From an uncultured Anaerotruncus sp. (GTDB lineage: Bacteria; Bacillota; Clostridia; Oscillospirales; Acutalibacteraceae): a DNA stretch of 64,000 nt. Positions 43,201 to 64,000 of the stretch are shown in pieces. Position numbers and translations under genes: made by a program. Position 1 is the first letter of the stretch, and every line of letters begins with the position of its first letter. The stretch covers positions 170,569-234,568 of the forward strand of contig UQDL01000001.1 of assembly GCA_900539775.1 (NCBI GenBank), in the 5' to 3' direction. Under the pieces are notes generated by a model. That model was not told the DNA's origin. It saw only the letters and a list, made by a program, of their open reading frames with translations, and did no database searches.

Positions 43201-44479
43201 GGTTGATGTTGATTTCTTAACCGTTATCGGCCCGATGCTTGACGGCCTTGTTGGCGGCCTTGTTCCCGGCGGACTTTCAAGCCTTGTAACAGCTAATGTT
43301 TACAAAGACAACATCATCAGCTCTTTGGCAACAGGCCTTTACGGCGCAGTTGAAAAGGTTAAGGTTGGCAATATGAGCCTTACCGATCTTCTTGCACAAA
43401 CAGGCATTGATTTCTCAACAGACAATGTTGCTTCACTTCTTACTGATAAGACATACGGCCAAAGCTTTGAAGCAGCAGCCAAAACAATTAAGAGCGCAGG
43501 CTCTTGGGCAAATGTTAAGGCTGATAAGCTTTCTTGGGGCGTAACAGACAGAGACAGCTTCTTGCATGCTCTTTGCGCAGCACTTCGCCCGATTTACGGC
43601 GTGCTTGATGTGCTTCTTAACGACGGCTCACTTGGCCTCTTCAATCTTATCTATCTTCCGGGTTCGGACGGATATACTTCCACAATCGTTCCGATCATGG
43701 AGGCATTCGGTCTTTACAACATTAAGACTCAGTATCAGTACAGACAGGATATGAGCAAGGAATACGATGCTATTCTTCTTGACATTCTTAACCCGCTTCT
43801 TGACAAGGTTGAGGATATCCTCAATGCTCCTGTTCAAACTCTTATGAGCATGCTTCCGAACCTTTCACTCTTCTTCGCAAATGACGGATTGCTTCAGGTT
43901 ATCGAAAACCTTACAACTCCGATCAGAGCTCTTCTTGATGCGGTTAAGCCAATTGCAAATGTTAACGACATTCTTGTGGCTGCCGGCCTCAATATTCAGA
44001 AGCTTCTTTCGGGCTATGGCCTTGTAGGCAGCGATTATAAGTTTAATATTTATGATCTTTCTGCTTCACTCAAGCCGCTCATCGGCTCTGAAAACATCGT
44101 TGGCCTTCTTAATAAGATTCTTGGCTTAATCAAGATCGGCGGTTCTCCGCTTGGCATAGAGCTTATGCCTATTGATTGGCTTCAGCTTGCTTCCCACGGT
44201 GAATTCATCGTTGACGAAGCTTCTCAGGCTTCCACCACAGGCAAGAGAATTTATGTTAAGGCTGATCCAAGCGAAGTTCTTATTGCATTCCTTCGTTACC
44301 TTATCAACACAGTAAACTATAAGGATAACTACAGCACCATCAGCAACCTCATCGGCGGCCTCATCGGCGGCGCAAGCAGCTCCGTATCTCAGGTAATTGA
44401 TCAGGTTCTCGGAATGCTTTCCGGCGACACGGATAAAGTTATCTCCGATCTTTGCGGACTTCTTCAAACTCTTGCTTAA
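37211..44479 (+). CDS. giant (2422-aa) secreted alpha-helical repeat protein, no anchor or catalytic motif recognised
   Basis: AAGGAGAG RBS then ATG 37211 (MKTSKRLLSLLLAVVMVITTCSVGMSAFAADKN, signal peptide). Internal ~400-aa tandem duplication in the C-terminal third (NALITSIATGVYGAIEKS... versus NIISSLATGLYGAVEKV..., and GYESAIVPLLEALMCDNIKT... versus GYTSTIVPIMEAFGLYNIKT...). Strong terminator downstream. Confidence 0.75.
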   Translation: MKTSKRLLSLLLAVVMVITTCSVGMSAFAADKNDDVFTYVTDEGKAVDITYESLNNLINTYAPEIIKLLGDKLTGLGVNVDEVCASDKPIYELLAQLSPALIKLMGSSSVTDEVIKDILLDAGIIGDDVAESDQLDAVKFAYVQYAYLNDAAAPMSIWNLYQFCMDNEKADDKDLKNYCKDTKAVLIDLLKAFDEAFTVAKLSVDSDFATVEEYVRTQVIGGSQFEENEFAVNNKVDYFAPYLLSASCYTADDAGKLAEALNAGLSGSITKIPASLANAKDVVAQGNGFSGKKLSEINASSDANVAAFINKVVSLCKAVNAPISENPSLGEAAFWYYNQPIRSKNATLTAVLTNLSGEAITVSDGGITTFTVQPGEYFYDVCKQEDLTYDVFAGLTGGVFPADAATDSFYYALYETSFVWSDNIFDVFGSVPSEDEATKWMFQSEFTAEDFTAIKNRVADLVAAKGIVKPAETKETDFLKEQAAKITEEEFINGVGSVPAVTADGRFSNFLKFYFLNEVFSSVPLAEIAGWDGAEETISDAMKVAGTHAANIIRGYSEFTLSKAVVPTISAAYKWDDVKPSDKLAIEIVNNNINGYVDYVRKGIPGVNINIYAIAKDIIANLTDSLTLDTLLEKVTDIYKKLAEDPVKTIFELVPVIVVVLDDVLVPLLFNQDGPDEADMYYGQINGIVANLLNEKNLTQSTGSTVGIGKIGWNLNEVLPTLLHWLNGDNSYTYTYYNVDTTNPDKYIYNTPSTGAFGTKYDNDGKELNHVPVILNIYAVDKALAAASASDLTNGKDDMLKELLASVMNLAVENVDNYVAEHGNDVGKYIVGQDGTKQIVFRGLNNVLVALPSIISNIGESFLAQFDVPSDWSFGEFKTDANGCKYNVSAKEFKDLCKNNSPASEVLKTFVDMFVNNWFNALTDFLNDVVSTNNTITTKLPVVASLLQALDLFGETSILTDALNGFFLMNREHKDSFTFEPQPNGYVGISTLSAYFLLCNVEPLVTFIMSVVNANKGTTDGNTVSLASLGNDFVAQAAANDVLDSIDINKITKEYSNIVSDSENVKAADELLDAVDELLSTLLSNTYIDGFTADKADGILSAAVTFLVNHFGVDTANDILDLVMQYVKTINEGNVATGNGSVDAKKVYCKENLSNLVTQTYVLAETIIDSQLNVKGDTNKLVNSAIKGIISPSAIAVRSDSINSKIMKEQSWTDLSATGYAKDLGYKNLVAGDKNTFFKDLIDSLGVIPAVLGTVLCATGYYNDVLSPILSDVCGNLEVSYTRTLSANANGKDATFAVIDVVSKILNKVLEAPASSLLGLIRGLAINFTDDKFGVTVKAAVAPITNEINGAASIVSTLSPSLGETVSGYATLVNDFVNTNILKEDNYFVNTINAILTAVGKDAIDIDLNSLLALVGNTSNAELLLLVYTVGVSVITNSSLLSSLLNGKYPGLVDMISKLSPSKLLTIIKEVIASTQNPKEIVWTFTNYAAQASNTFSYPKGITATDANNAVSSLDDLVKNLFPLLKSFGVLDANGLNDIINDNLFTNALITSIATGVYGAIEKSVDLISPADLAEYLTDASYGATYTSAANTLKGCAKWSDVKSVNWGFTDGSSSAQQGFVNALAALCRPVNDIVAALLAGGDVNIGELLQSVLDKLEINTTTYSGDVRIKISLNNNILNVETYNTAATDAQTNTIKVNLNDIIAQLKELGIKGGNGYESAIVPLLEALMCDNIKTPAQYLNDYKKAKDNLLINILNPIIGFVNKVADKPFDTLTAVLPNLAYFIDNNGLGQFLDNLLSPVTDIVKVLEKNGVSVDTIISAIAGKSLPDLIGGLIGANLSGLDLRIGNLANCNIQDYLADIINAVLKSNNLNIKISKIDFAFLASLGDLNTVYGAAGTTKQITANQGQVLVTLLRYIENVLINNASAINKLLGGIDAIKKNATIGGILDSVFATIATANRDDIVLAIFYFLLAQPTDTFFDYSNFKYKEYPFEYPSTVDVDFLTVIGPMLDGLVGGLVPGGLSSLVTANVYKDNIISSLATGLYGAVEKVKVGNMSLTDLLAQTGIDFSTDNVASLLTDKTYGQSFEAAAKTIKSAGSWANVKADKLSWGVTDRDSFLHALCAALRPIYGVLDVLLNDGSLGLFNLIYLPGSDGYTSTIVPIMEAFGLYNIKTQYQYRQDMSKEYDAILLDILNPLLDKVEDILNAPVQTLMSMLPNLSLFFANDGLLQVIENLTTPIRALLDAVKPIANVNDILVAAGLNIQKLLSGYGLVGSDYKFNIYDLSASLKPLIGSENIVGLLNKILGLIKIGGSPLGIELMPIDWLQLASHGEFIVDEASQASTTGKRIYVKADPSEVLIAFLRYLINTVNYKDNYSTISNLIGGLIGGASSSVSQVIDQVLGMLSGDTDKVISDLCGLLQTLA

Positions 44480-49183: not shown

Positions 49184-50407
49184 TTACCAACCGAGGCGCA
49201 AAACTGTGATTGTGCACCTGCCTGTGCCGGCGCTGAGTGCAGCTGCGTGGCCGCCCGGTGTGTAAATATCTATTCTGCCTGTTTTTGAAAGGCCGCTGCC
49301 GCCTCTGTCCACAACCGTGTAGGTTTGGCCGTCTACATCAATAACAGAGCCGAGCGGAAGCCAGTTGCAGGCAACATAATACGGCTCCGGCATGCCAACA
49401 TAAACCTTTTTTCCGGATGCTGTGTTGCCTGTGCTTTTGCCGCAGCATTTTGCGCACGGGCAATAATGAGTGTATTTACCGCTGATTGTTTGGCCAACGG
49501 AAAAGCCGTTTTTAGACTGCACGCCGTTTGGCTCAAAGCCTGCGGCAGCAGTACCAACATATTTAACCTCTGTTACAGGCTCCTTAACCGTTACGGAAGT
49601 GAGCTGCACTCTTGAGGTTTCTTCGCCGTTTACATAGGTTACCTGATAGGTTACCTTTTTTTCGCCGTTTTCACCGGCGGTTTCAACCTTTGTTTCGCCC
49701 ACGGTCATAGAGGCGTCTTCCTTTGTTTGGGTTGAATACTTAATATCTTCGCTTACTGTTTCTGTTTTTACAACAGTTCTGTAAACAGTGATCTCCATGC
49801 CGTTTTCAACAGGCGTGTCAACAGACGGTTCGCAATAATCGGCATCGCCGAGTGTGATGCCTGCAAGAGAAATTACATCTGCAACCGTTCCGCCTGCCGT
49901 GTTTAAATTATAAGTGTTGCCATCTGCAATCACAGCAACCGCAAGCGGAGCCTCCACTGTGATTACCATGCCGTTTTCAACAGCATCATTAACATCATAA
50001 TTGATCTTGCAGCCCGAAACATTTATTTTCAGCTCTGCAAAAGCCTCGCCCACCGTGTCGGCATAAACATCATATGCCTTGATGGATTCGTTAAACTTAA
50101 TGTTAACGGTATTTAATCTGTCTATAACGATAGTGCCGCCGTTGCCTGCCTCAAAGCCTGCAATATCAAGCCTATCATTAGAACCAAGAGCTATATTTGC
50201 CTCATTAAGGATTTCGGTTGGTTCCGTTTCGTTTGTTGTAACCGTATATTGCTTGCCGTTATCATCAATAACAACATTATATTCGCTTGCCATGCCTGCG
50301 AATGCGCTTGTGGCAAACACGCAAATGATAAGCAAAAATGCGATTACCGCTGCCGCCATAAATCTTGAAATATGCTTTACGGAGGCCGCATGTGATTCGT
50401 TAATCAT
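49184..50407 (-). CDS. cell-wall-associated DUF348-G5-3D domain protein (YabE/YuiC-like)
   Basis: AAAGGAG RBS. N-terminal TM anchor. DUF348-like repeats (YNVVIDDNGKQYTVTTNE..., NTYNLNTAGGTVADVISLAGI). G5-like segment (TKVETAGENGEKKVTYQVTYVNGEE). C-terminal 3D domain (VACNWLPLGSVIDVDGQTYTVVDRGGSG...RIDIY). Confidence 0.7.
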   Translation of the reverse strand: MINESHAASVKHISRFMAAAVIAFLLIICVFATSAFAGMASEYNVVIDDNGKQYTVTTNETEPTEILNEANIALGSNDRLDIAGFEAGNGGTIVIDRLNTVNIKFNESIKAYDVYADTVGEAFAELKINVSGCKINYDVNDAVENGMVITVEAPLAVAVIADGNTYNLNTAGGTVADVISLAGITLGDADYCEPSVDTPVENGMEITVYRTVVKTETVSEDIKYSTQTKEDASMTVGETKVETAGENGEKKVTYQVTYVNGEETSRVQLTSVTVKEPVTEVKYVGTAAAGFEPNGVQSKNGFSVGQTISGKYTHYCPCAKCCGKSTGNTASGKKVYVGMPEPYYVACNWLPLGSVIDVDGQTYTVVDRGGSGLSKTGRIDIYTPGGHAAALSAGTGRCTITVLRLGW

Positions 50408-51131: not shown

Positions 51132-51160
51132 TTGACAAGAATATTTCTTTGGGCTATAAT
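51132..51160 (+). promoter_or_regulatory. consensus sigma-A promoter TTGACA-17-TATAAT for tRNA-Arg
   Basis: ttgaca agaatatttctttgggc tataat, about 25 nt upstream of the tRNA 5' end. Confidence 0.65.
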
Positions 51161-51184: not shown

Positions 51185-51261
51185 GTCTCAGTAGCTCAGT
51201 TGGATAGAGCGACCGCCTCCTAAGCGGTAGGTCGGAGGTTCGACTCCTCTCTGGGACGCCA
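51185..51261 (+). tRNA. tRNA-Arg (anticodon CCT), encoded CCA
   Basis: 77 nt gtctcag...ctgggacgcca. Acceptor GTCTCAG/CTGGGAC with one G-T wobble, D-arm tagctcagttggatagagc, anticodon loop ctCCTaa, T-arm ggagg-ttcgact-cctct. Confidence 0.85.
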
Positions 51262-51269
51262 AAAACTCC

Positions 51270-51311
51270 GTCGGAAAGCCCGGTAAAATCAAGGGCTTCC
51301 GGCGTTTTTTC
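51270..51311 (+). terminator. rho-independent terminator after tRNA-Arg
   Basis: ccggaaagccc...gggcttccgg followed by cgttttttc. Confidence 0.6.
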
Positions 51312-51450
51312 ATTTTTACGAAGAAACAGCAAAAACGGAAAATCACAAATTTCATAATCGGTCAACAAATTTATTTGTAATTATTGACAATAAAAACGAG
51401 CGATGTATAATATTATTGTCTAATTTTAACAATTTGTTAGGGGATTATTT

Positions 51451-52851
51451 ATGGAAACGCACGGAATTAAATTTAAGGATAAGCTTGGTTATGCTTTGGG
51501 CGATATGGGCGGAATACTCTCGTTTAGTCTTGTTTCTTCGTATTTAACAATGTTTTATACCGATATTTTGGGCATTTCAGCCGCAAGCATAACAATCTTA
51601 ATGCTTGTTGCCAGAATTTGGGACGCTGTAAATGACCCTATGTGGGGTTCATTTATAGACTCAAGAAAGCCGACAAAGCACGGCAGATTCAGACCCTATA
51701 TTTTAGGGGCTTCTTTTCCGCTTGCCGTGGGTGCTTTTTTGATGTTTTGTAAAATCCCCGGATTGTCAAACGGCCAATACTTAATCTATGCTTATATAAC
51801 ATATATTTTCTACGGAATGATGTATACCGGCGTCAATATCCCTTACGGCTCATTGGCAAGTGCCATTACGGATGACGAGGTTGAACGCTCATCTCTTTCA
51901 ATGTGGCGCTCTGTCGGTGCGGGAATCGGCGGCTTGCCGGCGCAAATTCTTATGCCGCTTGTTGTTTTCACGACTGTAATCAATGCCGACGGCAGTTCGT
52001 CAAAGGTGCTGGACGGGAACAAGCTTTCATTGTGCGTAGGTGCAATTTCGATTTTAACGATCGTTCTTTTTATTATCCACTTTAGATTGACAAAAGAGCG
52101 AATTCAGCTTCCGCCGACTCAAAAAACAAGCGATTATAATTTGCTGAAAACCGTCAAAGTTCTTGCTAAAAACAAGCCGTTTGTTGTGCTTTGCTTTATA
52201 TCTATGTTTCTTATCTGTTTTCAAATGTACACACAAACGTTTTATAATTATCTTTTCAAAAATTACTTTGAGAAGCCGGGTCTTTACAGCATTGTTACCA
52301 TATGCACATATTTGCCTATGGCGTTGTTTTTACCGTTTATGGGTAAGCTTATCAGAAAATTCGGCAAAAAGGAAATTTGCGGCGCAGGCTTGGGCTTTGC
52401 CTTTGTTATCAGCGCATTGATGTTCCTTTTGCGTTTTACCCCGTTTGCTCACAATCCTTATGTTTTCCTCGGACTCGTGTTCCTTTCGGGTGCAGGTCAA
52501 ACCTTCCTTGTGCTTGAGGTTTGGGCGCTTGTTATGGACGTTACGGATTATCAGGAGCTTTTATCGGGCAGGCGTGAAGAGGGCACAACCTACAGTATTT
52601 ATTCTTTTGTTCGCAAATTAGGTCAAACAGCCGCAGGTGCAGGCGTTCCGGCAGTGCTTGGGGCTATCGGCTACAAAGGCACGCAAGCCGTACAATCGCA
52701 GCAGGTTTTAACGAAAATGTTTGATGCGGCAACAATAGTTCCGTCGGTTATTCTTTTGCTTATGTTTATTTTGACGACTTTTTGCTACAAGCTGGGCAAA
52801 TCGGAAATCGAGAATTTGCACAAGCAGCTTTACGGCAATAAAAACGATTGA
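51451..52851 (+). CDS. MFS GPH-family glycoside:cation symporter (second copy in the window)
   Basis: ARIWDAVNDPMWGSFIDSRKPTKHGRFRPY (GPH signature), 12 TM. Low GC relative to neighbours. Confidence 0.75.
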   Translation: METHGIKFKDKLGYALGDMGGILSFSLVSSYLTMFYTDILGISAASITILMLVARIWDAVNDPMWGSFIDSRKPTKHGRFRPYILGASFPLAVGAFLMFCKIPGLSNGQYLIYAYITYIFYGMMYTGVNIPYGSLASAITDDEVERSSLSMWRSVGAGIGGLPAQILMPLVVFTTVINADGSSSKVLDGNKLSLCVGAISILTIVLFIIHFRLTKERIQLPPTQKTSDYNLLKTVKVLAKNKPFVVLCFISMFLICFQMYTQTFYNYLFKNYFEKPGLYSIVTICTYLPMALFLPFMGKLIRKFGKKEICGAGLGFAFVISALMFLLRFTPFAHNPYVFLGLVFLSGAGQTFLVLEVWALVMDVTDYQELLSGRREEGTTYSIYSFVRKLGQTAAGAGVPAVLGAIGYKGTQAVQSQQVLTKMFDAATIVPSVILLLMFILTTFCYKLGKSEIENLHKQLYGNKND

Positions 52852-52872
52852 TATACTTAGGGGCATAATTTT

Positions 52873-54201
52873 ATGAAAACAGTCGAATTGCAAACAAAAT
52901 GCGGAAAAATTCAAGGCATAGACGGCGAAAACTGCTTTGAATTCAGGGGCATAAAGTACGCAAATGCCAAGCGTTGGGAATATCCTCAGGTGATTGAAAA
53001 GTGGCAGGGTGTTTTTGATGCAACTTGTTTTAAGGAGTGCTCATATCAGCACCGTGGGTTTGATGATGATGCAACGGTTAACCCTTTTTATCATTATGAA
53101 TTCAGAGACGGTTTGGCGTTTACATACAGCGAGGATTGCCAATTTTTGAATATATATATGCCTAAAGAGGCTAAAAACTGTCCTGTTTTAATTTTTATTC
53201 ACGGCGGCAGCTTTACAGGCGGAAGCTCAAACGAGGCACATATCAACGGCGAAAATTTTGCAAAAAACGGCGTGATTTTCGTTGCGATGAATTACAGGCT
53301 TAATGCCTTCGGCTTTTGCTCACACCCTGATTTAACCGATGAAAACGGAGTTTGCGGTAATTTCGGACTTTTTGACCAATATGCCGCAATTAAATGGGTT
53401 AGGGAAAATATTGAAGCTTTCGGCGGAAACCCGAATAATATTGTGCTTTCAGGTCAAAGCGCAGGGGCTATGAGCGTTGACATTCATCTTTCAAATCCGC
53501 TTTGCAAAGGTTGGTTTTCCGGAGCGATAATGATGAGCGGCGGCGGTTTACAGCGTTTCCTCGCAAAACCCCTGACCCCTGAAAAAACAAGAGCTTTTTG
53601 GGATAAGATTGTTGAAAATGCAGGAGTTAAAAGTATAGCCGAGTTAAAAAAAGCGGATAAAGAGGTGCTTTATCGTGCTTGGGATAAGGCATGCAAGGAG
53701 GATAAGCTTAAAAGTATGCTTTACACCCTGCCGGTTTGCGACGGAGAAATAATCACACAGTCAAATTTTAACAAAAGGACAATTCCTCAAATGCCCAAAA
53801 TTATAGGTGTTACAAAAAATGATATGGTGCCTGCCGTTTTGCAGGCTATCGATAAAAAATGGGTTTCCTGTGATAAAAACAGCGATTGCTATATTTATTA
53901 TTTTGCACGCAGCTTGCCGGGCGATGAAAAGGGTGCTTGGCATTCAAGCGATTTGCTTTATGCTTTTTCAACTCTTGATAAAAATTGGCGGCCTTTTGAG
54001 GCTGTTGATTATGAAATTTCAAATCAGCTTGCAAAATCTTTTATTGCTTTTGCAAAAAACGGAAATCCCAATTGCAATGAAATACCGGCGTGGAAGCCCG
54101 GCACGGCTAAGGTTATGACTTTTTGTGAAAACACAAGGCCGGCACATTGGAATACCCCACAGATTTTGAAAAATACATTTATTGGCGGAGCATCAATATA
54201 A
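52873..54201 (+). CDS. carboxylesterase type B (para-nitrobenzyl esterase-like alpha/beta hydrolase)
   Basis: IFIHGGSFTGGS (oxyanion hole HGG), GGNPNNIVLSGQSAGA (nucleophile elbow G-Q-S-A-G), family-typical length of 442 aa. Confidence 0.8.
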   Translation: MKTVELQTKCGKIQGIDGENCFEFRGIKYANAKRWEYPQVIEKWQGVFDATCFKECSYQHRGFDDDATVNPFYHYEFRDGLAFTYSEDCQFLNIYMPKEAKNCPVLIFIHGGSFTGGSSNEAHINGENFAKNGVIFVAMNYRLNAFGFCSHPDLTDENGVCGNFGLFDQYAAIKWVRENIEAFGGNPNNIVLSGQSAGAMSVDIHLSNPLCKGWFSGAIMMSGGGLQRFLAKPLTPEKTRAFWDKIVENAGVKSIAELKKADKEVLYRAWDKACKEDKLKSMLYTLPVCDGEIITQSNFNKRTIPQMPKIIGVTKNDMVPAVLQAIDKKWVSCDKNSDCYIYYFARSLPGDEKGAWHSSDLLYAFSTLDKNWRPFEAVDYEISNQLAKSFIAFAKNGNPNCNEIPAWKPGTAKVMTFCENTRPAHWNTPQILKNTFIGGASI

Positions 54202-56504
54202 TGAGATTTAATCATATTTTTAAGCTTACAAACGAAAACGAAACGCACCGTGAATATAAGTGCGATAACGTTAATATCAACATTGATTTCATAAGTGGCA
54301 GTGCTTTGCGTGTGGCTGTTTTTAACGATAACGCCGAAATGCTGCCGACCTTTACCGTAAATCCGAATAATAACCTATCCTCTCTCGGCAGAAACAGATT
54401 ATCCGTGGACGGATTTGACTGTGTTGCGCCTGTTGTTGAAAAATTTGAAAATAAAGAGAAATTTGTTCTTGATTGCGGCGTTACCGTTGACCTTGATTTA
54501 CACAATTTTATTTTGTCTTACAGTAAAGAGTCAAAGCTTTTGTTCGGAGACAGAGCGCCGCTTGCCTATAATTTTGAAGGCGAATTCGGCAATGTGTCTT
54601 ATCATTATATTACCAGAGAAGATGACGAGCATATTTTCGGACTTGGCGACAAAAGCGGCCTGATAAATAAAGCGGGTCAGGTTTACCGTGTTGAAACGGC
54701 GGACAGTATGGGCTTTGACGCAGAAAAAACAGATCCTCTGTACAAGCATGTTCCGTTTTATATTTGCGAAAATTCTGTTGGTGCTTACGGTATTTATTAC
54801 GATACAACAGACACCTCTTTTGTTGATTTGGGCAGGGAAATCAATAATTATTACTGCCATTTCAAGTATTTTAAGACGGATGACGATTGCTTGGTTTATT
54901 ATGTTTTTTTCGGAAGCAAGCTTTCTGTTTTACAGCAATATGCTCGCTTGTGCGGCAAGCAGGCTTTTCCGCCTAAGTGGAGCTTCGATTATTGCGGCAG
55001 CACAATGGCATATACCGATGCGCCTGACGCACAAAATCAGATGCAGGGCTTTTTGGATAAAATTAAAGACCTTGATTTGAGCTGCGGCGGATTTTATCTT
55101 TCATCGGGATATACTTCAATAGGGAATTTGCGTTGCGTTTTTAATTGGAATTACGATAAGTTCCCCGATCCTGAAAAATTCGTTGCCGATTACAATAATG
55201 CAGGAATACATTTAATTCCGAATATTAAGCCTGCTTTTTTGACCTCGCATCCAATGTATGATGAGTTGGCGGAAAAAGGATTTTTTGTTAAAAATGCAGA
55301 CTCAACACCCTATGTAACACAGTTTTGGGACGGCGTGGGCAGTTATTTGGACTTTACAAATTCCGACGCCTTCGATTTTTGGGGCAGTCAGGTAACCGAA
55401 AAGCTACTTGATTTCGGAATTGATGCCACATGGAATGATAATAACGAGTTTGATATTAAGGCAACCGACGCTGTTGCCGCAGGCTTTGGCGAAAAAGCTT
55501 CTGCGTGCAGAATTCGTCCGATATTAACTTATTTAATGGTATTATCTTCGTACAAGGCGCAAATGAAAAAATATCCCAATAAGCGTCCGTTTTTATCTAC
55601 GAGAAGCGGAAACAGCGGTGTAAGACGCTTGGCGCAAACCTGGTCCGGCGATAATTTTACTTCGTTTCACGATTTGCGTTTTTGCCATTATGTGGGAATG
55701 ACAATGTCCCTTTCAGGCTTTTATTTTTACGGTCACGATTTGGGAGGCTTTTCAGGCGAAATGCCTTCCGAAGAATTGCTTTTAAGATGGATGCAGCACG
55801 GCGTTTTTGAGCCACGCTTTACAATTCATTCTTGGAACGGCGACGGCTCTGCTACTATGCCGTGGAGCTACGAAAGCGGCTTGTGCGGCGCAAAGGCGAT
55901 TTTAAAACAACGCAAAAGCCTGATACCTTATTTATATAATTGTGCTTATAACAGCGTGGAAAATGATGTCCCCGTGCAAGCTCCGCCTTATATTTATTAC
56001 AATGATGAAAATATTGATGTAAATACCGATGCGTTTATGCTTGGCAGAGATGTTTTGGCAGCCTGCGTGCTTGACGAGGGTGTAACTCAGGCAGATGTTT
56101 ACCTGCCAAAGGGCGACGATTGGTATCTGAATGAAACAGAAAAGCTTTATTGCGGCGGAAGCACGGTAAAGGTCGATTTGCCGTCAGATAAGCCTGTGCC
56201 TTATTTTATTCGTTCCGGCTCTGTTTTTCCCGTTGATGAGGGCGAGTGCTCATACAAATCCGCAGAGAAAGTCGTTTTTACCGTTTATCCTGTTAAAAAC
56301 GGCAAATTTACAGCCCGTTATTTTAATGATGACGGCGAGTCCTTTGAATACTTAAAAAACAACTGCGTAAAATTAGAGTTTGATGTAAATTGCGATAACG
56401 AAAATGTTGATGTTGTTGTAAATAATAAGGGTAATGTAAAATTTGAGCCTGAAATCAAGCTTGTTTCTACGGATTTGCGTAAGTTGAATGTTTCGGTAAA
56501 ATAA
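54201..56504 (+). CDS. glycoside hydrolase family 31 (alpha-glucosidase/alpha-xylosidase)
   Basis: GIDATWNDNNEF (GH31 catalytic-nucleophile motif WxDMNE variant), about 770 aa. ATG overlaps the esterase stop (TAATG). The ORF track starts at 54147. Confidence 0.75.
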   Translation: MRFNHIFKLTNENETHREYKCDNVNINIDFISGSALRVAVFNDNAEMLPTFTVNPNNNLSSLGRNRLSVDGFDCVAPVVEKFENKEKFVLDCGVTVDLDLHNFILSYSKESKLLFGDRAPLAYNFEGEFGNVSYHYITREDDEHIFGLGDKSGLINKAGQVYRVETADSMGFDAEKTDPLYKHVPFYICENSVGAYGIYYDTTDTSFVDLGREINNYYCHFKYFKTDDDCLVYYVFFGSKLSVLQQYARLCGKQAFPPKWSFDYCGSTMAYTDAPDAQNQMQGFLDKIKDLDLSCGGFYLSSGYTSIGNLRCVFNWNYDKFPDPEKFVADYNNAGIHLIPNIKPAFLTSHPMYDELAEKGFFVKNADSTPYVTQFWDGVGSYLDFTNSDAFDFWGSQVTEKLLDFGIDATWNDNNEFDIKATDAVAAGFGEKASACRIRPILTYLMVLSSYKAQMKKYPNKRPFLSTRSGNSGVRRLAQTWSGDNFTSFHDLRFCHYVGMTMSLSGFYFYGHDLGGFSGEMPSEELLLRWMQHGVFEPRFTIHSWNGDGSATMPWSYESGLCGAKAILKQRKSLIPYLYNCAYNSVENDVPVQAPPYIYYNDENIDVNTDAFMLGRDVLAACVLDEGVTQADVYLPKGDDWYLNETEKLYCGGSTVKVDLPSDKPVPYFIRSGSVFPVDEGECSYKSAEKVVFTVYPVKNGKFTARYFNDDGESFEYLKNNCVKLEFDVNCDNENVDVVVNNKGNVKFEPEIKLVSTDLRKLNVSVK

Positions 56505-56508
56505 TATC

Positions 56509-56530
56509 TGCCTTCCGGGACGCCAAAAAG
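56509..56530 (+). repeat. short direct copy of the tRNA-Arg 3' end (ccgggacgccaaaaag), followed by its own terminator hairpin (56531-56566)
   Basis: Matches ctgggacgccaaaaa at 51249-51265 with one mismatch. The hairpin agcagtatcaaa/tttgatgctgct is followed by a T-run. Confidence 0.5.
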
Positions 56531-56619
56531 CAGTATCAAAATTTGATGCTGCTTTTTTATTTTAAAGGCAACTATGCACTATGCACTAAAATGCCGCCTT
56601 AGTTAAATGGATATAATAA

Positions 56620-56667
56620 ACCCCTCCTAAGCGGTAGGTCGGAGGTTTGACTCCTCTCCGGGACGCC
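56620..56667 (+). repeat. truncated tRNA-Arg(CCT) 3' half (anticodon stem to CCA), 47/48 nt with two mismatches to the intact gene; att-like direct repeat
   Basis: cctcctaagcggtaggtcggaggttTgactcctctcCgggacgcca. No 5' half or acceptor partner upstream. Followed by the terminator agccgaaaag...cttttcggct-ttttc (56668-56708). Confidence 0.7.
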
Positions 56668-56857
56668 AAAAAGCCGAAAAGCCTTGATACAGCGCTTTTC
56701 GGCTTTTTCTTTTTGCTATTCTGATTTCGGCCTGCGCGTTGCCGCTTTCAAAGCAATCACGCTTTGCAGCCCAAAACTAAGCTTGGCACTTGCTTTTTGA
56801 TTTCAAACATGATATTATTGGTATATATACTAATACATTTATTAACAGGTGATATAA

Positions 56858-57562
56858 TTGCGTAGAAGCAGCAGCGAAACAAAGAAAAAAATTCTGACCG
56901 CATGCGTCAAATTGTTTTTGGAGGAGGGATATAAAAACACCACTGTAAGCCGAATTATTGAAGAGGCAGAGGTTGCAAGAGGAAGCTATCTTAATTTGTT
57001 TCCCACTAAGGACAAAATTTTGCTTGAATTAACCCAAACCATGTTTGGAGGGCAATTCGATGTGGCAAGAAGCATTGCAAACAGAAATTTGCCGCCGGTT
57101 TTTGCCTATGCGGTTGAAACTGCAATACAGCTTACTCTTACCGAGCTAAACGAAAATTTGCGAGAGATTTATATTGAAGCATACACAATTCCGGACACGG
57201 CAGAATATATATATCTGCACACCACGGCAGAGCTGAGGCAGATTTTCGGCACAAACTTTCCCAATTACAGTGACAGCGATTTTTATGAAATGGAAATAGG
57301 CACGGCAGGTTTAATGCGTAACTATATGGCCAGAAAATGCGACATTCATTTTCCCCTTGAGCGCAAGCTCAGCCGATTTTTAACTGCAGCGATGCGAGTT
57401 TATCTTGTGCCGGAAGAAGATCAGGAAAAGGTGCTTGCTTTTATAGGCTCAATTGATATTCAGGCGATTTCCGCCAAGGTTATGCACAAACTGTTTGCCA
57501 TGTTGGAAATGAAATATGATTTTAAGCTTTCAAACGATGGCAAAACGGAGGAAAGAAGATGA
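56858..57562 (+). CDS. TetR/AcrR-family transcriptional regulator
   Basis: TTG start with AGGTGAT RBS. N-terminal HTH KKKILTACVKLFLEEGYKNTTVSRIIEEAEVARGSYLNLFPTKDKIL. ATGA overlap with the downstream collagen-like lipoprotein gene. Confidence 0.75.
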   Translation: MRRSSSETKKKILTACVKLFLEEGYKNTTVSRIIEEAEVARGSYLNLFPTKDKILLELTQTMFGGQFDVARSIANRNLPPVFAYAVETAIQLTLTELNENLREIYIEAYTIPDTAEYIYLHTTAELRQIFGTNFPNYSDSDFYEMEIGTAGLMRNYMARKCDIHFPLERKLSRFLTAAMRVYLVPEEDQEKVLAFIGSIDIQAISAKVMHKLFAMLEMKYDFKLSNDGKTEERR

Positions 57563-58986
57563 AAACAGGAAAAAAACTGCTCACAGGTATGCTTTTGGTG
57601 CTTTTCATCGTTTTTGTCGCAGGATGCGGCAAAGCGGAAAAAACCGACGCCGCTGCACTGCCGGAGGTGCGGAACAACGGCACGGCGATCCAATGGAGAT
57701 ACCCCGCTGAAGAAGAATGGCGCGACCTTGTGGCGCTTACCGAGCTGCGAGGTGCTGCCGGAGAAAACGGCAAGGACGGAACAGACGGAAAGAACGGTGT
57801 CGACGGTAAAGACGGCATTAACGGCATTGACGGAAAGAACGGTATTGACGGCATTAACGCCAAAAACATAGAGGTGCAGCGAGCCGAATCCTACATACAG
57901 TGGCGTTACGAGGGCGACGAGTGGCAAAATCTTGTTGCGATAGCCGATATAGAGGGCCCCGCCGGACAGAACGGAACGGACGGTGCAAACGGAAAAACTC
58001 CGGAATTTCGCGTAAGCGAAAATATCCTGCAATGGCGTTATGTCGACGATGAAATATGGCTGAACCTTTACGACCTTTCGGTTTTGAAAGGTCTTGACGG
58101 CAAGGACGGAGCCGACGGTATAAACGGTAAAGACGGAGCCGACGGTAAGGACGGAACAAACGGACAAAACGGCTCTGACGGCAAAGACGGTAAAACACCT
58201 TTTATCGGCGAAAACGGCAACTGGTGGATCGGAGAAATCGACACCGGCATCAAGGCGGCAGGTACCGACGGAAAAGACGGTATAAACGGAATTAACGGTA
58301 CAAATGGTAAGGAAATTGAAATCCAAAAGACCGATTTGTATATTCAATGGCGTTACAAGGGCAGCGAGTGGCAAAACCTTGTGGCTCTTGCAGATATTTT
58401 AGGTCCCTCCGGACAAAACGGCATAAACGGCGAAGACGGTAGAACTCCCGAATTTCGGGTAAATGGCAATCAGCTGCAATGGCGATACGAAGGCGAGACC
58501 ATTTGGCTGAATCTGTATGATTTATCCGCATTGAAAGGTGCAGACGGCAAGGACGGATCATGCGCCGGATATTTTGCAGCAAACGGCAGAGTATACAGTT
58601 GGGGAACACCGCTTCCGTTCAATGTAAAAAAAGAAAGCGGAGATTTGATCTCCTATAACTCATCAAGCAAAACAATCACCCTTTCAAAAGGTCACACATA
58701 CAGTATGGTGTTCAGCGGAACGGTTATGATCAGCGCTAACGGTAATTATAAGTTGTGCGGTGCATCACTCATTGACGGATATAACAGTTCTGAAATGATG
58801 CTTGAGACGCGAACCTATGTGAGTATGATAGATGACGGTCAAAGTGCAAGACTTGGTATGTCGTATAACACTATATACAGTGCCGAAGAGGATATTGCTT
58901 TGACATTTCAATATACAAATATGCTCTTCCAGAATACCAATTTTACCGACAGTCAGTACAACATAACCATTATTGCTCTTGACTGA
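57559..58986 (+). CDS. collagen-like (G-x-y) repeat lipoprotein with five QWRY...W.NL interspersed modules and a C-terminal globular domain
   Basis: GGAGGAAAG RBS. Lipobox FVAGC. G-x-y tracts (GENGKDGTDGKNGVDGKDGINGIDGKNGIDG...) alternate with IQWRYxxxEWQNLVAL / LQWRYxxxIWLNLYDLSxLKG. High GC3. Confidence 0.7.
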   Translation: MKTGKKLLTGMLLVLFIVFVAGCGKAEKTDAAALPEVRNNGTAIQWRYPAEEEWRDLVALTELRGAAGENGKDGTDGKNGVDGKDGINGIDGKNGIDGINAKNIEVQRAESYIQWRYEGDEWQNLVAIADIEGPAGQNGTDGANGKTPEFRVSENILQWRYVDDEIWLNLYDLSVLKGLDGKDGADGINGKDGADGKDGTNGQNGSDGKDGKTPFIGENGNWWIGEIDTGIKAAGTDGKDGINGINGTNGKEIEIQKTDLYIQWRYKGSEWQNLVALADILGPSGQNGINGEDGRTPEFRVNGNQLQWRYEGETIWLNLYDLSALKGADGKDGSCAGYFAANGRVYSWGTPLPFNVKKESGDLISYNSSSKTITLSKGHTYSMVFSGTVMISANGNYKLCGASLIDGYNSSEMMLETRTYVSMIDDGQSARLGMSYNTIYSAEEDIALTFQYTNMLFQNTNFTDSQYNITIIALD

Positions 58987-59017
58987 GCCGACGTACACGA
59001 AAACGGAGGTAATGCAA

Positions 59018-62000
59018 ATGAAGAAACGAATACTCAGCATCCTGCTCGTTCTTTGTATGATGCTTTGCCTTGTGCCTACAAGCGTATTTGCCGAAAGCGA
59101 AACTAACAAGAAAGTTGAAACGGAACAGGAGCTTGTTGATGCGCTGTCTGACAGCAGCACAGACATCATCACACTGAAGAATGACATTGCAATCAGCACC
59201 ACCCTGACCGTTGACCGCGCTGTCACGCTGGATGTTTACGGCTATATGCTTGAAATAACCGGCAGCGGCAGCGTTATAAACATCAAAAGCGGCGGCCACC
59301 TTACGCTGAAGGACAGCGACCCCACAGCGGAGCACAGGTTCGTCTCCGACAACGGCCTATGGAAGCTGGATGAAATCAGCGGCACAGAGACCGTCCTCGG
59401 CGGCGTCATCTACGGCGGCACAGGTACAAAAATGTACTATTCTACTTACGGCGGCGGTGTGCTGATTGAACCCGGCGGCGCGTTCACCATGAACGGCGGC
59501 AGTATCGTGGGCTGTAAGGCCGACGGCGCAGGCGGCGGTGTGGTGGTTCAATGCGGTGATGCAAACGGCATATTCACCATGAATAGCGGCGCCATCATCG
59601 GCTGCGTCGCGGAAAGCGGCGGCGGTGTGGAAACAGACGGCGGCGGAGTAGGGGAATACGGCCAATTCATCATGAACGGCGGCGTGATCGACAACTGCGT
59701 GGCCAACGGTAGAACCGGTGGTGGCGGCGTCCGAAACGATGGCCTGTTTATCATGGGGAAGGATGCCACAATCAAAAACTGCAAAGCCGTCGAAAACGGT
59801 CAACGCAATATTGGCAGCGGCATAGTCCTCGCCGGTGATGAACGGCAAACCATCGGTGGCACGATCATTTCAGAGGATGTCGTGGATGAGAAGTACATTT
59901 TTATGAACCGCAGCACAATGGCCATCGGTGAAAACGCCAACATTCACGCGAATATAACGTTGGATGGCGGCAAAATCGACTTGGATGGCAGCCGTGCGAC
60001 CGTCTATGGCAAGATCACCAACGATAGCTACGGCGGTGTCAGTTGCTTTGCCGACGGTCTTGTCACCGTGACCTACAAGGTCAGCGGTGAAGACTACGCC
60101 GTTCAGGTTCTGCGGAGCGGCAGTCTCGCCACCCGACCCATCGAACCCACCAAGACGGGCTATGAATTCGACGGCTGGTTCACCTCCGACGGCACGAAGT
60201 GGGACTACAATACGGCTGTGACGGAGAATATCACCCTCACGGGAAGCCTGTATATCCCCGTAACGAGTGAGACAGAACTGAGAGCCGCTCTGGCGGACGA
60301 TACGGCGGATGTCATCCGGCTGACGAAGGATATCGACATCAGCAGCTCCCTGACCATCCTCCGCAAGGTCACCCTCGATCTCAACGGCTATGTGCTGCGG
60401 TATGCTGACACGACTGCCAATGGTAGTGTGTTTAAAATTGTAAGCGGCGGCGACCTGACCGTCATCGACAGCAGACCCGACGCGGAGCATAGGTTCAACA
60501 GCGACAATATTCTGTGGGCACCGGATGAGCAAAACGGCAAAGAGATTGTCATGGGCGGCGTCATCACCGGCGGTACGGGCACGCCTTGTTATGTGAACGG
60601 TTCATCATACTTTGTTGCATGCGGTGGCGGTGTGTACCTGGAAGGCGACGCCAGATTCACCATGGACGGCGGCAATATTGTCGGTTGTATAGCAAATACC
60701 GGCGGCGGTGTGCACATCTCCGAAAACGGTTCATTCACCATGAACGACGGCAGCATCATGGGCTGCTCATCATGGGACCTTTCGATCCCCGGCGGCACGC
60801 CATACTTCGGCGGCGTGTACCTTGACAGCGGTACATTCACTATGACCGGCGGTGTAATCAAAGACTGTGCTAAATATAGTGTTGTGCTTAATGAAAATGC
60901 CACTATGAATGCCAACGGCGGCGAGATATACGGTGTGGTTGAAGTCGGAAAGAATTCGTATGTAACCGGTCTCAACGGTATTGCCGGTGTCACCGTTTTC
61001 AGAGACAATTTTTGGATTTATCATAACTCCGCACGTGTTGACTGGGGCATTTTCTACGGCAGTATAACCAATTATTACGACGACCCGATTATCGGTCTCA
61101 CCGTGACTTATATGAACGGCGAAACAATATATGCCAGACAGATCTTGCCCTCCGGCACTCTCGCGACGCGTCCGGACGCTCCTACCACCACACCGGGCTA
61201 CACCTTCGGCGGCTGGAACAAGGTCGACGGCACGGCGTGGAATTATGCAAGTGATAAAGTCACCGATAACATAACATTGTATGCAAAATGGACAGCGAAT
61301 ACCTACACAATAACCTTTGATACCGCAGGCGGCAGCGAAATCGCACCCATTACACAGGACTACGGTACGGCAATTACCGCACCTGCCGACCCGACAAGAG
61401 AGGGGTACACCTTTATCGGCTGGGACAGGGAATTTCCCGAAACCATGCCTGCCGAGAATATAACGCTTAAGGCACGGTGGAAAGACATCGAAAAGCCCAC
61501 GGGCGAAATTATCATAGGCACAAATAAATGGCAAAGCTTTTTAAACAAGCTCACTTTCGGCTTATTCTTTAAGAATACGCAGGAGGTAACGATAAACGCC
61601 ACCGACAACAGTTCAACCGTGTTTATCTCTTATTTGGTAACAGATCAGGATCTCTCCGAGGCGGAGCTTGGCTCCCTTGTGTACCAAGCATATGATGAGC
61701 CGTTTTGCATAGATCCCAACGGAGAACATATTATTTATGCAATGCTTGTTGATGAGAGCCTTAACATAACATATCTTCGTTCAGACCGCATAACACTTGA
61801 TAACATTCAGCCCGTAATCGGCGGCATAGAGGACGGCAAGCTCTATTGTGCAGCGCAAACGGTCTCCATTGACGAAAAGTATGTGAATACCGTTACCGTA
61901 AACGGCACGGCAGTTGAGCTTGACGAAAACAACAGCTTCAGCCTTGATCCGGCAGACGGCGAACAGCAAATTGTTGTCACCGATAAGGCCGGCAACACCG

Positions 62001-62488
62001 CCGAGATGACCGTAACGGTCAACGACGGGCATACCTATGGTGAATGGGTTTCAAACGGCAACGGCACGCACACACGCAAATGCACGGTGGACGGCTGCAA
62101 CGGTTTTGAAACCAAAGACTGCACCGGCGGAAATGCAACATGCACCGAAAAAGCAATTTGCGAGCTCTGCGGCAAGGCTTACGGCGAGTTTAACGCAAGC
62201 AACCACACCGACCTTAGGCACACGGAAGCAAAAGCGGCAACCGAGAGTGCCGAGGGCAATATAGAATATTGGCACTGCAACGGCTGCGGCAATTATTACA
62301 GCGATGCGGCAGGAACAAAGAAAATCAAACAAGCCGACACCGTAACGGCAAGGCTTAAGGGCAATTCCAAATCTCCGCAAACCGGCCACACAGGCAACCT
62401 TGCCTTATTGGCGGCGCTGATGTTTACCGGCAGCGGTGCGGCGCTCGGCTTAACTGCTGCGGGCAAAAAGAAAAAGCGCAGCAAATAA
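59018..62488 (+). CDS. 1.15-kaa surface protein: duplicated Pmp-like parallel beta-helix repeat modules, Flg_new (Listeria-Bacteroides) repeats, Cys-rich segment, C-terminal SPQTG sorting signal
   Basis: GGAGG RBS. Signal peptide MKKRILSILLVLCMMLCLVPTSVFA. Repeats GGGV...FTMNGG (GGA[ILV]/FxxN-like). Two homologous ~400-aa modules (ETEQELVDALSDSSTDIITLKNDI... versus TSETELRAALADDTADVIRLTKDI...). GYEFDGW, GYTFGGW, GYTFIGW. C-terminus KSPQTGHTGN-LALLAALMFTGSGAALGLTAAG-KKKKRSK. High GC3. Confidence 0.75.
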   Translation: MKKRILSILLVLCMMLCLVPTSVFAESETNKKVETEQELVDALSDSSTDIITLKNDIAISTTLTVDRAVTLDVYGYMLEITGSGSVINIKSGGHLTLKDSDPTAEHRFVSDNGLWKLDEISGTETVLGGVIYGGTGTKMYYSTYGGGVLIEPGGAFTMNGGSIVGCKADGAGGGVVVQCGDANGIFTMNSGAIIGCVAESGGGVETDGGGVGEYGQFIMNGGVIDNCVANGRTGGGGVRNDGLFIMGKDATIKNCKAVENGQRNIGSGIVLAGDERQTIGGTIISEDVVDEKYIFMNRSTMAIGENANIHANITLDGGKIDLDGSRATVYGKITNDSYGGVSCFADGLVTVTYKVSGEDYAVQVLRSGSLATRPIEPTKTGYEFDGWFTSDGTKWDYNTAVTENITLTGSLYIPVTSETELRAALADDTADVIRLTKDIDISSSLTILRKVTLDLNGYVLRYADTTANGSVFKIVSGGDLTVIDSRPDAEHRFNSDNILWAPDEQNGKEIVMGGVITGGTGTPCYVNGSSYFVACGGGVYLEGDARFTMDGGNIVGCIANTGGGVHISENGSFTMNDGSIMGCSSWDLSIPGGTPYFGGVYLDSGTFTMTGGVIKDCAKYSVVLNENATMNANGGEIYGVVEVGKNSYVTGLNGIAGVTVFRDNFWIYHNSARVDWGIFYGSITNYYDDPIIGLTVTYMNGETIYARQILPSGTLATRPDAPTTTPGYTFGGWNKVDGTAWNYASDKVTDNITLYAKWTANTYTITFDTAGGSEIAPITQDYGTAITAPADPTREGYTFIGWDREFPETMPAENITLKARWKDIEKPTGEIIIGTNKWQSFLNKLTFGLFFKNTQEVTINATDNSSTVFISYLVTDQDLSEAELGSLVYQAYDEPFCIDPNGEHIIYAMLVDESLNITYLRSDRITLDNIQPVIGGIEDGKLYCAAQTVSIDEKYVNTVTVNGTAVELDENNSFSLDPADGEQQIVVTDKAGNTAEMTVTVNDGHTYGEWVSNGNGTHTRKCTVDGCNGFETKDCTGGNATCTEKAICELCGKAYGEFNASNHTDLRHTEAKAATESAEGNIEYWHCNGCGNYYSDAAGTKKIKQADTVTARLKGNSKSPQTGHTGNLALLAALMFTGSGAALGLTAAGKKKKRSK

Positions 62489-62570
62489 TCAACACATAAA
62501 AACAAAAGTGAGCCCCATAAAACAGTGGCTCACTCATAAGAAATAATTGCTCAATAAATCAAACAACGGC

Positions 62571-62616
62571 AAAAAGCGGCTTGTCCTTAGTTTAGGCAAG
62601 CCGCTTTTAATTTTTT
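62571..62616. terminator. bidirectional terminator (aaagcggcttg / caagccgcttt plus T-run)
   Basis: 11-bp stem between convergent genes. Confidence 0.7.
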
Positions 62617-63289
62617 ACTTTTTACTTTTTCTTGCAGAAACGGGAAAATCGTTTTTAACATATGTTTCCCACACATTCATTCTGTCGTCCTCATCAATTT
62701 CACGAATAACCCTTGCCGGCACACCTGCCGCAATGCTGTTTGGCGGAATGTCTCTGTTTACAACCGCACCTGCTGCAACAATGCTGTTTTCGCCGATGGT
62801 TACTCCGCCGCAAATCGTGGCGCTTGAGCATATCCAGCAATTATCCTTAATTGTTATCGGCAAGGCATATTCAAGATCATGTTTACCGTCCGGATAATCG
62901 GCAGGCAATCGTTCCTCTGCAATGAAAGGATGATTAGGCGTTGCAAGAGTTACATTTGCACCTATCCAAACACCGTTTCCGAAAGTGATCGGCGCAACAT
63001 CAAGAAAGGTGCAGTTATAATTTGCAAAGCAGCCTTTGCCAACATGAATATTAACGCCGTATTCGCAATAAAACGGAGCAAACACGCAAAAATCCTTGCC
63101 CTTTGCAGACGGAATCAGCCTTTCAAGAGCACGCTGCTTTGTTTTAAACCTCCACACGGCAATTTTATTAAATCTGTTGCACCTTACAAGCCCAAGTGCA
63201 TGCTGCTTAAAAATATCCTTGCTTTCTGAATTATAAAGCTTGCCCGAAATCATTCTGTCCCAATCACTGAGATTATTATACACTGCCAT
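62615..63289 (-). CDS. maltose/galactoside O-acetyltransferase family (left-handed beta-helix hexapeptide repeat)
   Basis: MAVYNNLSDWDRMISGKLYNSESKD (MAA/LacA N-terminal pattern), hexapeptide repeats IGANVTLATPNHP...ICGGVTIGENSIVAAGAVV. The start is uncertain; the ORF track extends to 63355. Confidence 0.7.
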   Translation of the reverse strand: MAVYNNLSDWDRMISGKLYNSESKDIFKQHALGLVRCNRFNKIAVWRFKTKQRALERLIPSAKGKDFCVFAPFYCEYGVNIHVGKGCFANYNCTFLDVAPITFGNGVWIGANVTLATPNHPFIAEERLPADYPDGKHDLEYALPITIKDNCWICSSATICGGVTIGENSIVAAGAVVNRDIPPNSIAAGVPARVIREIDEDDRMNVWETYVKNDFPVSARKSKK

Positions 63290-63694
63290 TTCCTCCGCTT
63301 TGATTATGATGCCCTGCATGCCGGCGTTTTGCGGCATGCCGTGCGCCCGTTTCAACCGAATGAGCTCAAATTCAATATATATTATACATTAAAAGCGCCG
63401 CAACTGCAATCTTTGTTTGCCGGCGGAGAGGTGCCATACAAAAATCTTGAAATTGGGCAAGCCGTTTGATATAATATAGAAAGCGTTTGGCGTTATATTC
63501 ATAAAACAACGTTTTTTTAATAAATTCTGCGCTTTTTGAGCTTTTTCAAAAGTGCAAATTTAAGGCAGAAAATCCGTTTCTTTTTTAACGCTTTTCGGCC
63601 GCACCGCAAATCAGGGGCGGCATCAATTTAAATCAACGCCGCCGCATAAAACGGGCAGCGTTGCACAGATTATATAAAGGCAGGAGGGAACACG

Positions 63695-64000
63695 ATGCTG
63701 GAGCTTAAAAACATTTGCTTTTCCGTAAGCGATGAAGCGCAGGGCGGCACAAAGGAAATATTAAACAACATCAATTTAAGCGTTGATAAAAACAGCTTCG
63801 TTGTTATAACCGGGCCGAACGGCGGCGGCAAATCCACTTTGGCAAAAATCATTATGGGGATTGAGCACCCAACGGCCGGCAAAATAATATATAACGGGCA
63901 AGATATTACAAATTTAGATATTAACGAAAGGGCAAATCTGGGAATCGGCTTTGCTTTTCAGCAGCCGGTGCGCTTTAAAGGGCTTACCGTGCGTGATTTG
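63695..64000 (+). CDS. ABC-type ATPase, SufC-like, N-terminal fragment running off the window end
   Basis: AGGAGGG RBS. MLELKNICFSVSDE...VITGPNGGGKSTLAKIIMG...ERANLGIGFAFQQPV resembles the SufC N-terminus. Confidence 0.6.
   Translation, partial: MLELKNICFSVSDEAQGGTKEILNNINLSVDKNSFVVITGPNGGGKSTLAKIIMGIEHPTAGKIIYNGQDITNLDINERANLGIGFAFQQPVRFKGLTVRDL

Follow-up and report, generated by a model that had tools for sequence, protein, structure and literature searches.

How does a tRNA gene come to be followed, kilobases downstream, by two loose pieces of its own 3′-end? The question is raised by a 64 000-nt stretch of DNA from an uncultured Anaerotruncus sp. (contig UQDL01000001.1; hereafter the window), in which an intact tRNA-Arg(CCT) gene precedes an operon of three genes for sugar utilization (the cassette) and, behind the cassette, two partial copies of the tRNA 3′-end. 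An earlier note, made from the sequence alone, had taken the copies for the footprint of site-specific integration, in two successive events, and the 5.3 kb between tRNA and copies for the inserted segment. Having compared the locus with its counterparts in related and conspecific genomes, we consider it likely that the copies are tRNA gene fragments displaced by successive site-specific integrations, followed by decay to a composite island of 12.3 kb that no longer has an integrase. The footprint as such is supported by the repeats, by an empty site in sister species and by the junction of a conjugative element found in another strain of the species.

ARAGORN reported tRNA-Arg(CCT) as the sole tRNA of the window; its Rfam score was 66.3 bits, and no second sequence between 51000 and 57000 was scored by Rfam as a tRNA. 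The intact gene and the two copies have one orientation (forward strand), and each has its own terminator behind it (Table 1). The longer copy (copy 2) agrees with tRNA nucleotides 32–77 plus five flanking A's at 48 of 50 positions, and one of its two mismatches, a C>T change in the T-loop, is a polymorphism within the species. The shorter one (copy 1, TCCGGGACGCCAAAAAGC) is identical to the end of copy 2 (18/18) and matches the tRNA end with its flank at 15 of 18 positions (83%). A 13-nt core, GGGACGCCAAAAA, is exact in the tRNA, copy 1 and copy 2; the window has three occurrences where 0.21 would be expected, and none of 100 shuffles reached three. Beyond these limits the similarity was not significant: into the D-arm copy 2 gave p about 0.25, on which ground we rejected the idea that it is a whole decayed tRNA, and further 5′ copy 1 matched at 6 of 20 positions. 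The earlier note had described an intact tRNA with two partial 3′ copies, and ARAGORN, Rfam and the match counts bear this out; its interval for the longer copy, 56620–56667, was essentially right and is refined here to 56623–56672. It had also given each copy a terminator hairpin. Indeed, the hairpins behind the tRNA (T1), copy 1 (T3) and copy 2 (T2) fold strongly, with z from −3.5 to −6.5 (for T1, −20.4 kcal/mol and z −3.5, with a U-run after the hairpin), and the three differ from one another.

Integrases that target tRNA genes (tDNAs) have two recognized crossover sublocations, A and J (Islander, PMC4383910). Copy 2 has its left edge in the anticodon loop (A), copy 1 at the junction of T-stem and acceptor stem (J). 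Edges at two distinct sublocations argue for two integrases of different site preference and not for random deletion ends; thus, at least two integration events probably took place, which agrees with the two successive events proposed before.

The extent of the insertion was judged from relatives. The G5/DUF348 gene of the window (49184–50407, reverse strand) was used to retrieve 57 loci of related species, all from metagenome-assembled genomes (MAGs) that bear the labels Eubacterium, Ruminococcaceae or Clostridia; the most distant was E. coprostanoligenes, with 46% G5 identity. The pairing of G5 with tRNA-Arg held in most relatives down to ∼55% G5 identity. In three sister species (loci L011–L013, G5 89–92% identical) the tRNA gene is 100% identical to that of the window, with the A6–T67 pair in its acceptor stem, and is followed by a terminator (T4), sufC and sufBD, the gap between tRNA and sufC being ∼100 nt. 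In a nucleotide alignment (A1) homology with the sisters begins immediately behind the point at which the tRNA 3′-end would lie, and the window homologues of T4 and sufC are met only at 63594 and 63695. Therefore, the true insertion relative to the empty site is 51262–63593, ∼12.3 kb instead of 5.3 kb, within which the tRNA fragments mark junctions between modules. Separated from the tRNA by 12.3 kb, the T4 of the window lacks the U-run and part of the stem that it has in the sisters, and looks like a terminator decayed after loss of function. Past the island, the gene order of conspecific contigs (sufC, sufBD, an MFS_2 gene) is that of the sisters. The insertion postulated in the earlier note is therefore real, but its extent has to be enlarged by the TetR–adhesin and acetyltransferase genes. 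As for alleles with an empty site, they were found in the sisters but not within the species, where the island and both scars were present in every contig examined (∼30 loci, of which some share a contig). The universal conservation that the earlier note would have taken as a refutation thus does not extend to the sister species.

In three outgroups (L014, L019 and L023) the order G5, tRNA, sufC is kept, with other genes in gaps of 3.0, 1.8 and 0.7 kb, respectively; the insertion is thus placed in the lineage of the window species. One could argue instead that the island is ancestral to this species and its sisters, and that the empty site of the latter arose secondarily by clean deletion or excision. 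Direct repeats would permit such a deletion, and the content of the tRNA–sufC interval is variable in the outgroups as well. However, none of the three outgroups has any island gene between tRNA and sufC, and the sisters' T4 is functional-looking and directly follows the tRNA, while that of the window is decayed. Besides, the next-best GH31 is only 76% identical, no GH31 match being found between 76% and 97% identity, as compared with 83–92% for the relatives of G5 and TetR; this pattern suggests sister species devoid of the sugar cassette. We find a loss in the sisters very improbable.

The island consists of module A (T1, segment X and the sugar operon), module B (T3 and segment Y, 88 nt) and module C (T2 and the genes for TetR, the collagen-like protein, the Flg_new protein and the hexapeptide acyltransferase). 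The earlier note saw no integrase in the shorter segment, and the same is true of 51262–63593 as a whole: Pfam gives MFS_2, COesterase, GH31, TetR, Collagen, Flg_new and Hexapep there, with no Phage_integrase or Resolvase, and no intergenic space in this interval is large enough for an integrase remnant. Genes for type IV secretion, a coupling protein or a relaxase are likewise absent from 51262–63593.

Table 1. Features of the tRNA-Arg(CCT)–sufC interval (window positions)
Feature	Position	Strand	Remarks
Promoter of the tRNA gene	51132–51160	+	TTGACA-17-TATAAT, 12/12 matches; also kept in sisters L011–L013
Intact tRNA-Arg(CCT)	51185–51261	+	ARAGORN, Rfam; putative attL role
Terminator T1 with segment X	51262–51355 (T1, 51262–51318)	+	matches post-tRNA sequence of L020
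Cassette promoter	51384–51411	+	sigma-70-type; TTGACA-16-TATAAT, 12/12 matches
GPH/MFS_2 sugar:cation symporter	51451–52851	+	466 aa; PF13347, E 4e-85
Type-B carboxylesterase (COesterase)	52873–54201	+	442 aa; Pfam
GH31 alpha-glycosidase	54201–56504	+	767 aa, ATG at 54201; Pfam
Copy 1, displaced tRNA 3′-end, 18 nt	56514–56531	+	C67; TCCGGGACGCCAAAAAGC
Terminator T3	56525–56557	+	−17.5 kcal/mol, z −6.5, U-run; now ends the cassette operon
Segment Y	56558–56622	+	tandem CTATGCA repeat; presumed right (P) arm
Copy 2, displaced tRNA 3′ half, 50 nt	56623–56672	+	anticodon loop to CCA +5 nt; C67; attR-type scar
Terminator T2	56668–56708	+	−21.8 kcal/mol, z −4.0, U-run
TetR-family regulator	56858–57562	+	first gene of distal module; Pfam
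Collagen-repeat protein	57559–58986	+	length strain-variable; Pfam
Flg_new-repeat surface protein	58973–62488	+	C-terminal SPQTG anchor-like motif; Pfam
Hexapeptide (maltose-acetyltransferase-like) acyltransferase	62615–63355	−	last island gene
Terminator T4	63594–63625	+	homologue of sisters' native tRNA terminator; right island boundary; alignment A1
sufC, 5′ part	63695–64000	+	sister synteny resumes; 93–94% amino-acid identity

Should one count as an island only the 5.3-kb sugar cassette, taking everything beyond copy 2 for native chromosome? It is indeed the cassette that the tRNA and its fragments enclose, and the TetR–adhesin operon has orthologs at 83–86% in related species and so belongs to the gene set of the clade. 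Still, the sisters pass from the tRNA through T4 to sufC, and in the window T4 and sufC lie beyond the TetR operon and the acetyltransferase gene. In the relatives this operon follows a fructose phosphotransferase system operon, not tRNA-Arg/sufC, and has no tRNA nearby; its nucleotide homology with the window begins only at 56786. Finally, the order tRNA-Arg, T2, TetR operon, sufC without the cassette was seen in 0 of the 57 related loci. Restricting the island to the cassette therefore appears very unlikely to us.

The tRNA-Arg(CCT)–sufC interval is an integration hotspot in this uncultured gut Oscillospirales clade (‘Eubacterium sp.’ MAGs related to E. coprostanoligenes), and elements are still seated in it in other genomes. 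A conspecific contig, L080, is identical to the window from 51217 on, that is, from the first base of the anticodon loop through the rest of the tRNA, T1, X and the cassette. On the upstream side of 51217 it carries a conjugative element, with ...AATGTG joined to CTCCTAAGCGG at the junction; copy 2 starts 1 nt upstream of this junction (tRNA nucleotide 32 versus 33). Among the genes of the L080 element are those for a winged helix-turn-helix (wHTH) protein and a C39-like peptidase; a VirB4-like ATPase and a coupling protein (T4CP) are encoded in addition by elements homologous to it. In Ca. Eubacterium faecipullorum (L065, DXGE01000010) the host promoter and the 5′ half of the tRNA end at ...CCTCCTAAG, after which come a hairpin, a complete foreign tRNA-Arg(CCT), a T2-like terminator, ParA, ParB and an adhesin of an element resembling integrative and conjugative elements (ICEs); the adhesin is a 1406-aa thioester (TED)/SpaA LPXTG protein. 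The same 5′-half junction is found in L028, and the L026 contig stops at that point. The core shared by these junctions is at most CTCCTAAG, i.e. the anticodon loop and one base, and copy 2 keeps it intact.

We observed also that in L065 (∼9180–9370, reverse strand) the host tRNA-Arg, split at the anticodon loop, is not restored, and that the element-borne tRNA has the acceptor stem GTCGCTA/TAGCGAC. The L065 case is one of whole-gene tRNA replacement, not of 3′-half replacement.

A further trace of elements is found in their arms. The 94 nt of T1–X match the post-tRNA sequence of L020 with ∼86% identity (92–96 nt aligned, E 7e-24), though L020 is a distant relative with G5 only 66% identical and the flank in the much closer sisters is unrelated to T1–X. 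In L020 the homologue of T1–X runs into TTGCTAAT/ATTAGCA repeats, a mobile-element arm, and we interpret T1–X, from this sequence comparison, as a remnant of the left (P′) arm of an element. A 12-mer, AAATTAGCAGGA, accompanied by TTGCTAAT repeats, is present in 3 of 130 loci (L020, L065 and L080), each time 120–290 nt from the tRNA-Arg junction; to judge by its placement, it resembles an arm-type binding motif that belongs to one family of integration modules. At the other side, segment Y, for which no homologue was found among the relatives, is presumed to be the right arm of an otherwise lost element. Scans of viral contigs for the T1–X arm and for the C67 half-tRNA gave 0 matches and thus no sign of prophage origin.

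These junctions bear on the simplest alternative, that the copies are decayed paralogs from a tandem tRNA duplication, or chance similarities within terminators. Tandem duplication of tRNA genes is common, and copy 1 does sit in a hairpin-forming stretch. Nevertheless, the matches of 18/18 and 48/50 are far beyond chance, the 5′ halves are absent rather than decayed, and the left edge of copy 2 is within 1 nt of the live-element junctions in L080, L065 and L028. Furthermore, no tRNA fragment follows the stop codon of the GH31 homologues that have 76%, 70% and 68% identity, from which it follows that the scar does not travel with the gene. We would give duplication or chance hardly any credence.

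A core of no more than 8 bp in the anticodon loop and repeated motifs on both arms make a tyrosine integrase plausible at this site. Our search found no integrase within 9 kb of the left end of the L065 element or within 4.4 kb of the right end of the L080 element; near these ends there were only ParA/ParB, the adhesin, the wHTH protein and parts of a type IV secretion system (T4SS). The left junction of the L080 element did not turn up in look-ups with G5 or DUF5058. Close homologues of the L080 wHTH protein were tried as a lead to the integrase and discarded: they sit in ICEs with other ends, at other sites. Also rejected was an integrase of L094 (8501–9574), which belongs to a neighbouring element at another site. 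That element, a small mobilizable one with its tyrosine integrase, a helix-turn-helix protein, an AAA_25 replication protein, a Mob_Pre relaxase and type I restriction-modification genes, abuts the end of an ICE whose wHTH protein is 97% related to that of L080; it is another tandem, at a different site.

Turning to the cargo, we saw that Pfam upholds the content assigned in the earlier note to the 5.3-kb segment (GPH symporter, type-B carboxylesterase, GH31). The stop codon of the esterase gene overlaps the start codon of the GH31 gene. Among proteins of solved structure, the best relative of the latter is 6JR6, a GH31 protein (E 3e-66), and YicI is also among them (E 1e-41). The same note had called the segment visibly more AT-rich than its flanks, and here it was mistaken: cassette GC is 0.41 versus a window mean of 0.438, and GC content at third codon positions (GC3, 0.38–0.46) and codon-bias distance (0.26–0.30) are within the spread of other window genes. 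The foreign composition looked for in tDNA islands is thus not seen in the cassette, and we rejected the argument for foreign origin from compositional anomaly.

The relatives of the cargo genes tell a similar story. The closest GH31 outside the species has 76% identity and many more have 60–70%, in ‘Eubacterium sp.’ MAGs; in relatives the esterase–GH31 pair has the same stop/start overlap and resides in ordinary chromosomal neighbourhoods at other loci. Considered together with the TetR–adhesin operon, both cargo sets are family-typical genes placed elsewhere in relatives, and not exotic imports, which explains their native-like composition. A history of capture and transfer within the family, or of translocation, would fit. 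Of the proposal that an island delivered a carbohydrate module, one part stands, since a decayed island without integrase does carry the sugar operon; an exotic import is at odds with family-typical genes of native composition.

The sequence of events could have been the following. At each integration the tRNA gene would be split: the element brings a 3′ part of its own, and the former one is pushed downstream together with its terminator. First, one or two related elements specific for the anticodon loop would have integrated, bringing a C67 3′ half with the flank AAAAAGC, and copy 2 with T2 would have been displaced by a crossover within CTCCTAAG. A later element would have crossed over at the T/acceptor junction, displacing copy 1 with T3 and supplying the present 3′-end (T67) together with the T1–X left arm; what may remain of its cargo is the GPH–esterase–GH31 operon. 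Subsequent deletions would have removed all recombination and transfer genes, and displaced terminators would have been co-opted, T3 now terminating the sugar operon. Tandem accretion of elements and their decay to cis-mobilizable elements (CIMEs) are documented (PMC5704250).

Within the species three variants of the locus were seen: L080, described above, L008 and L010/L086. L008 (ERZ27295068 k141_138541) is a divergent strain with T2 in place of T1 (51262–51318) after the intact tRNA, then X; the second T2 creates a ∼95-nt direct repeat around the cassette. The L008 tRNA keeps T67, and so the exchanged patch starts within GGGACGCCAAAAA. In L010/L086 (ERZ27295408 k141_52791) an element is inserted in the carboxylesterase gene, at the equivalent of window position ∼53740, with RepA_N, an IstB-like ATPase and a 539-aa large serine recombinase, the like of which is absent from the window and from the other loci among L001–L067. 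The symporter gene of this strain is split into two open reading frames (ORFs); with esterase and symporter both broken, the cassette is dispensable in that strain.

Several observations weigh against displacement by successive integrations. Both fragments have C67, while the live tRNA and that of every relative have T67 paired with A6; one has to assume either two elements with the same variant 3′ half or homogenization of the fragments. No clear tRNA fragment marks the distal boundary at T4, where there is just ACGC (63588–63591); to account for the distal module one must therefore invoke an extra deletion or another mechanism. The L008 allele (tRNA, T2, X) is not simply explained. The cognate integrase of the elements that target tRNA-Arg was not recovered near the ends searched, and so we infer the recombinase family. 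Finally, the composition of the cargo is native and its homologues and orthologs occupy ordinary sites in relatives; its presence may be due to capture or translocation instead of delivery by the elements.

With regard to the C67 variant, a metagenome scan for an intact tRNA-Arg combining the window-type anticodon stem with C67 gave 0 matches. A looser scan, with 32 nt, gave 30 loci, two of them from the window species and 28 of them from unrelated bacteria, whose tRNA-Arg genes are genuine but differ in the anticodon stem (mostly environmental metagenome records of the Joint Genome Institute); no donor of the variant was identified among the 30. As intact C67 tRNA-Arg genes are found only in unrelated bacteria with another anticodon stem, we take C67 for a variant carried by elements or displaced copies, not for the trace of a distant donor.

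What, then, is the island to be called? Islands integrated in tDNAs, with a regenerated tRNA gene and a displaced fragment, were reportedly described by Reiter in 1989 and by Williams in 2002. Compared with the islands of Islander, a database and paper devoted to tDNA-integrated genomic islands (PMC4383910), the window likewise has an intact tRNA with 3′ fragments downstream on the same strand, fragment edges at subsites A and J, a tandem with one fragment per module, and an empty site in related genomes (L011–L013). Unlike them, no module of the window has an integrase, for which reason Islander's own filters would reject it (PMC4383910), and the distal module is without a clear fragment at its outer boundary.

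Another comparison is with ICESt1 and ICESt3 of Streptococcus thermophilus, whose CIMEs and accretion were reportedly described by Pavlovic in 2004 and Bellanger in 2011. As in a CIME, the window cargo lies, at the sequence level, between att-like repeats (the tRNA end with T1–X at the left, copies 1 and 2 at the right), and the island has neither recombination nor conjugation modules. L080, where a conjugative element is integrated beside the cassette, resembles an ICE–CIME tandem, the accretion state that mobilization would need. Unlike ICESt1/ICESt3, which use the 3′-end of fda, the target here is the anticodon loop of tRNA-Arg, and ICE descent of the window modules rests on the ∼94 nt of shared arm. 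The genes that define an ICE (T4SS, coupling protein, relaxase) are confined to the elements of L080 and L065 and to homologues of these; the window island has none. CIMEs and the tandem accretion of ICEs have been reviewed (PMC5704250). The locus is best labelled a decayed tandem island, CIME-like in character, that occupies a tRNA-Arg/sufC hotspot; genome scars of this kind are well known, and no new mechanism is implied. Its operon resembles yicJ–yicI of E. coli (GPH transporter and GH31 alpha-xylosidase) in pairing a GPH/MFS_2 symporter with GH31, and differs in the type-B carboxylesterase between the two and in having 6JR6, not YicI, as best solved relative.

The locus is a precisely mapped case of a tRNA gene accumulating metabolic and adhesin operons via repeated integration and decay. 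The host is an abundant, uncultured human-gut species, and the tRNA-Arg(CCT)/sufC hotspot is live, with a conjugative element present in at least one conspecific strain. One could speculate that the scars are still working att sites, at which the left end of an L080-type element recombines with copy 2 or copy 1, though we think this rather unlikely. If it were true, such recombination would excise and transfer the conjugative element and the sugar operon together, and the hotspot would be a capture and shuttle platform for carbohydrate-utilization and adhesin operons among uncultured gut Oscillospirales. Cases of this kind can be of use in MAG annotation, where standard island finders miss islands without integrase, and in tracing the mobility of glycan-utilization genes.

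The adhesin locus formed by the collagen-repeat and Flg_new genes of the distal module is diversifying strongly. Among conspecifics the length of the collagen-repeat protein ranges from 475 to 520 aa, and in most conspecific contigs the Flg_new allele is replaced by one with 42–46% identity to that of the window. With GC3 of 0.63, the Flg_new gene is the only compositionally atypical gene nearby.

On the far side of G5, away from the tRNA, the genes for an M20 peptidase, a DUF5058 protein and a 218-aa protein are present in the window and in L011 but missing in L012 and L013; this side, too, is therefore rearranged among the sisters. Elsewhere in the window we saw two divergent giant ORFs, at 30374–36547 (reverse strand, 2057 aa) and 37148–44479 (forward strand, 2443 aa). 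The 2443-aa ORF has no Pfam match listed in the precomputed gene tables, and its copy in the sister L011 is 80–91% identical.

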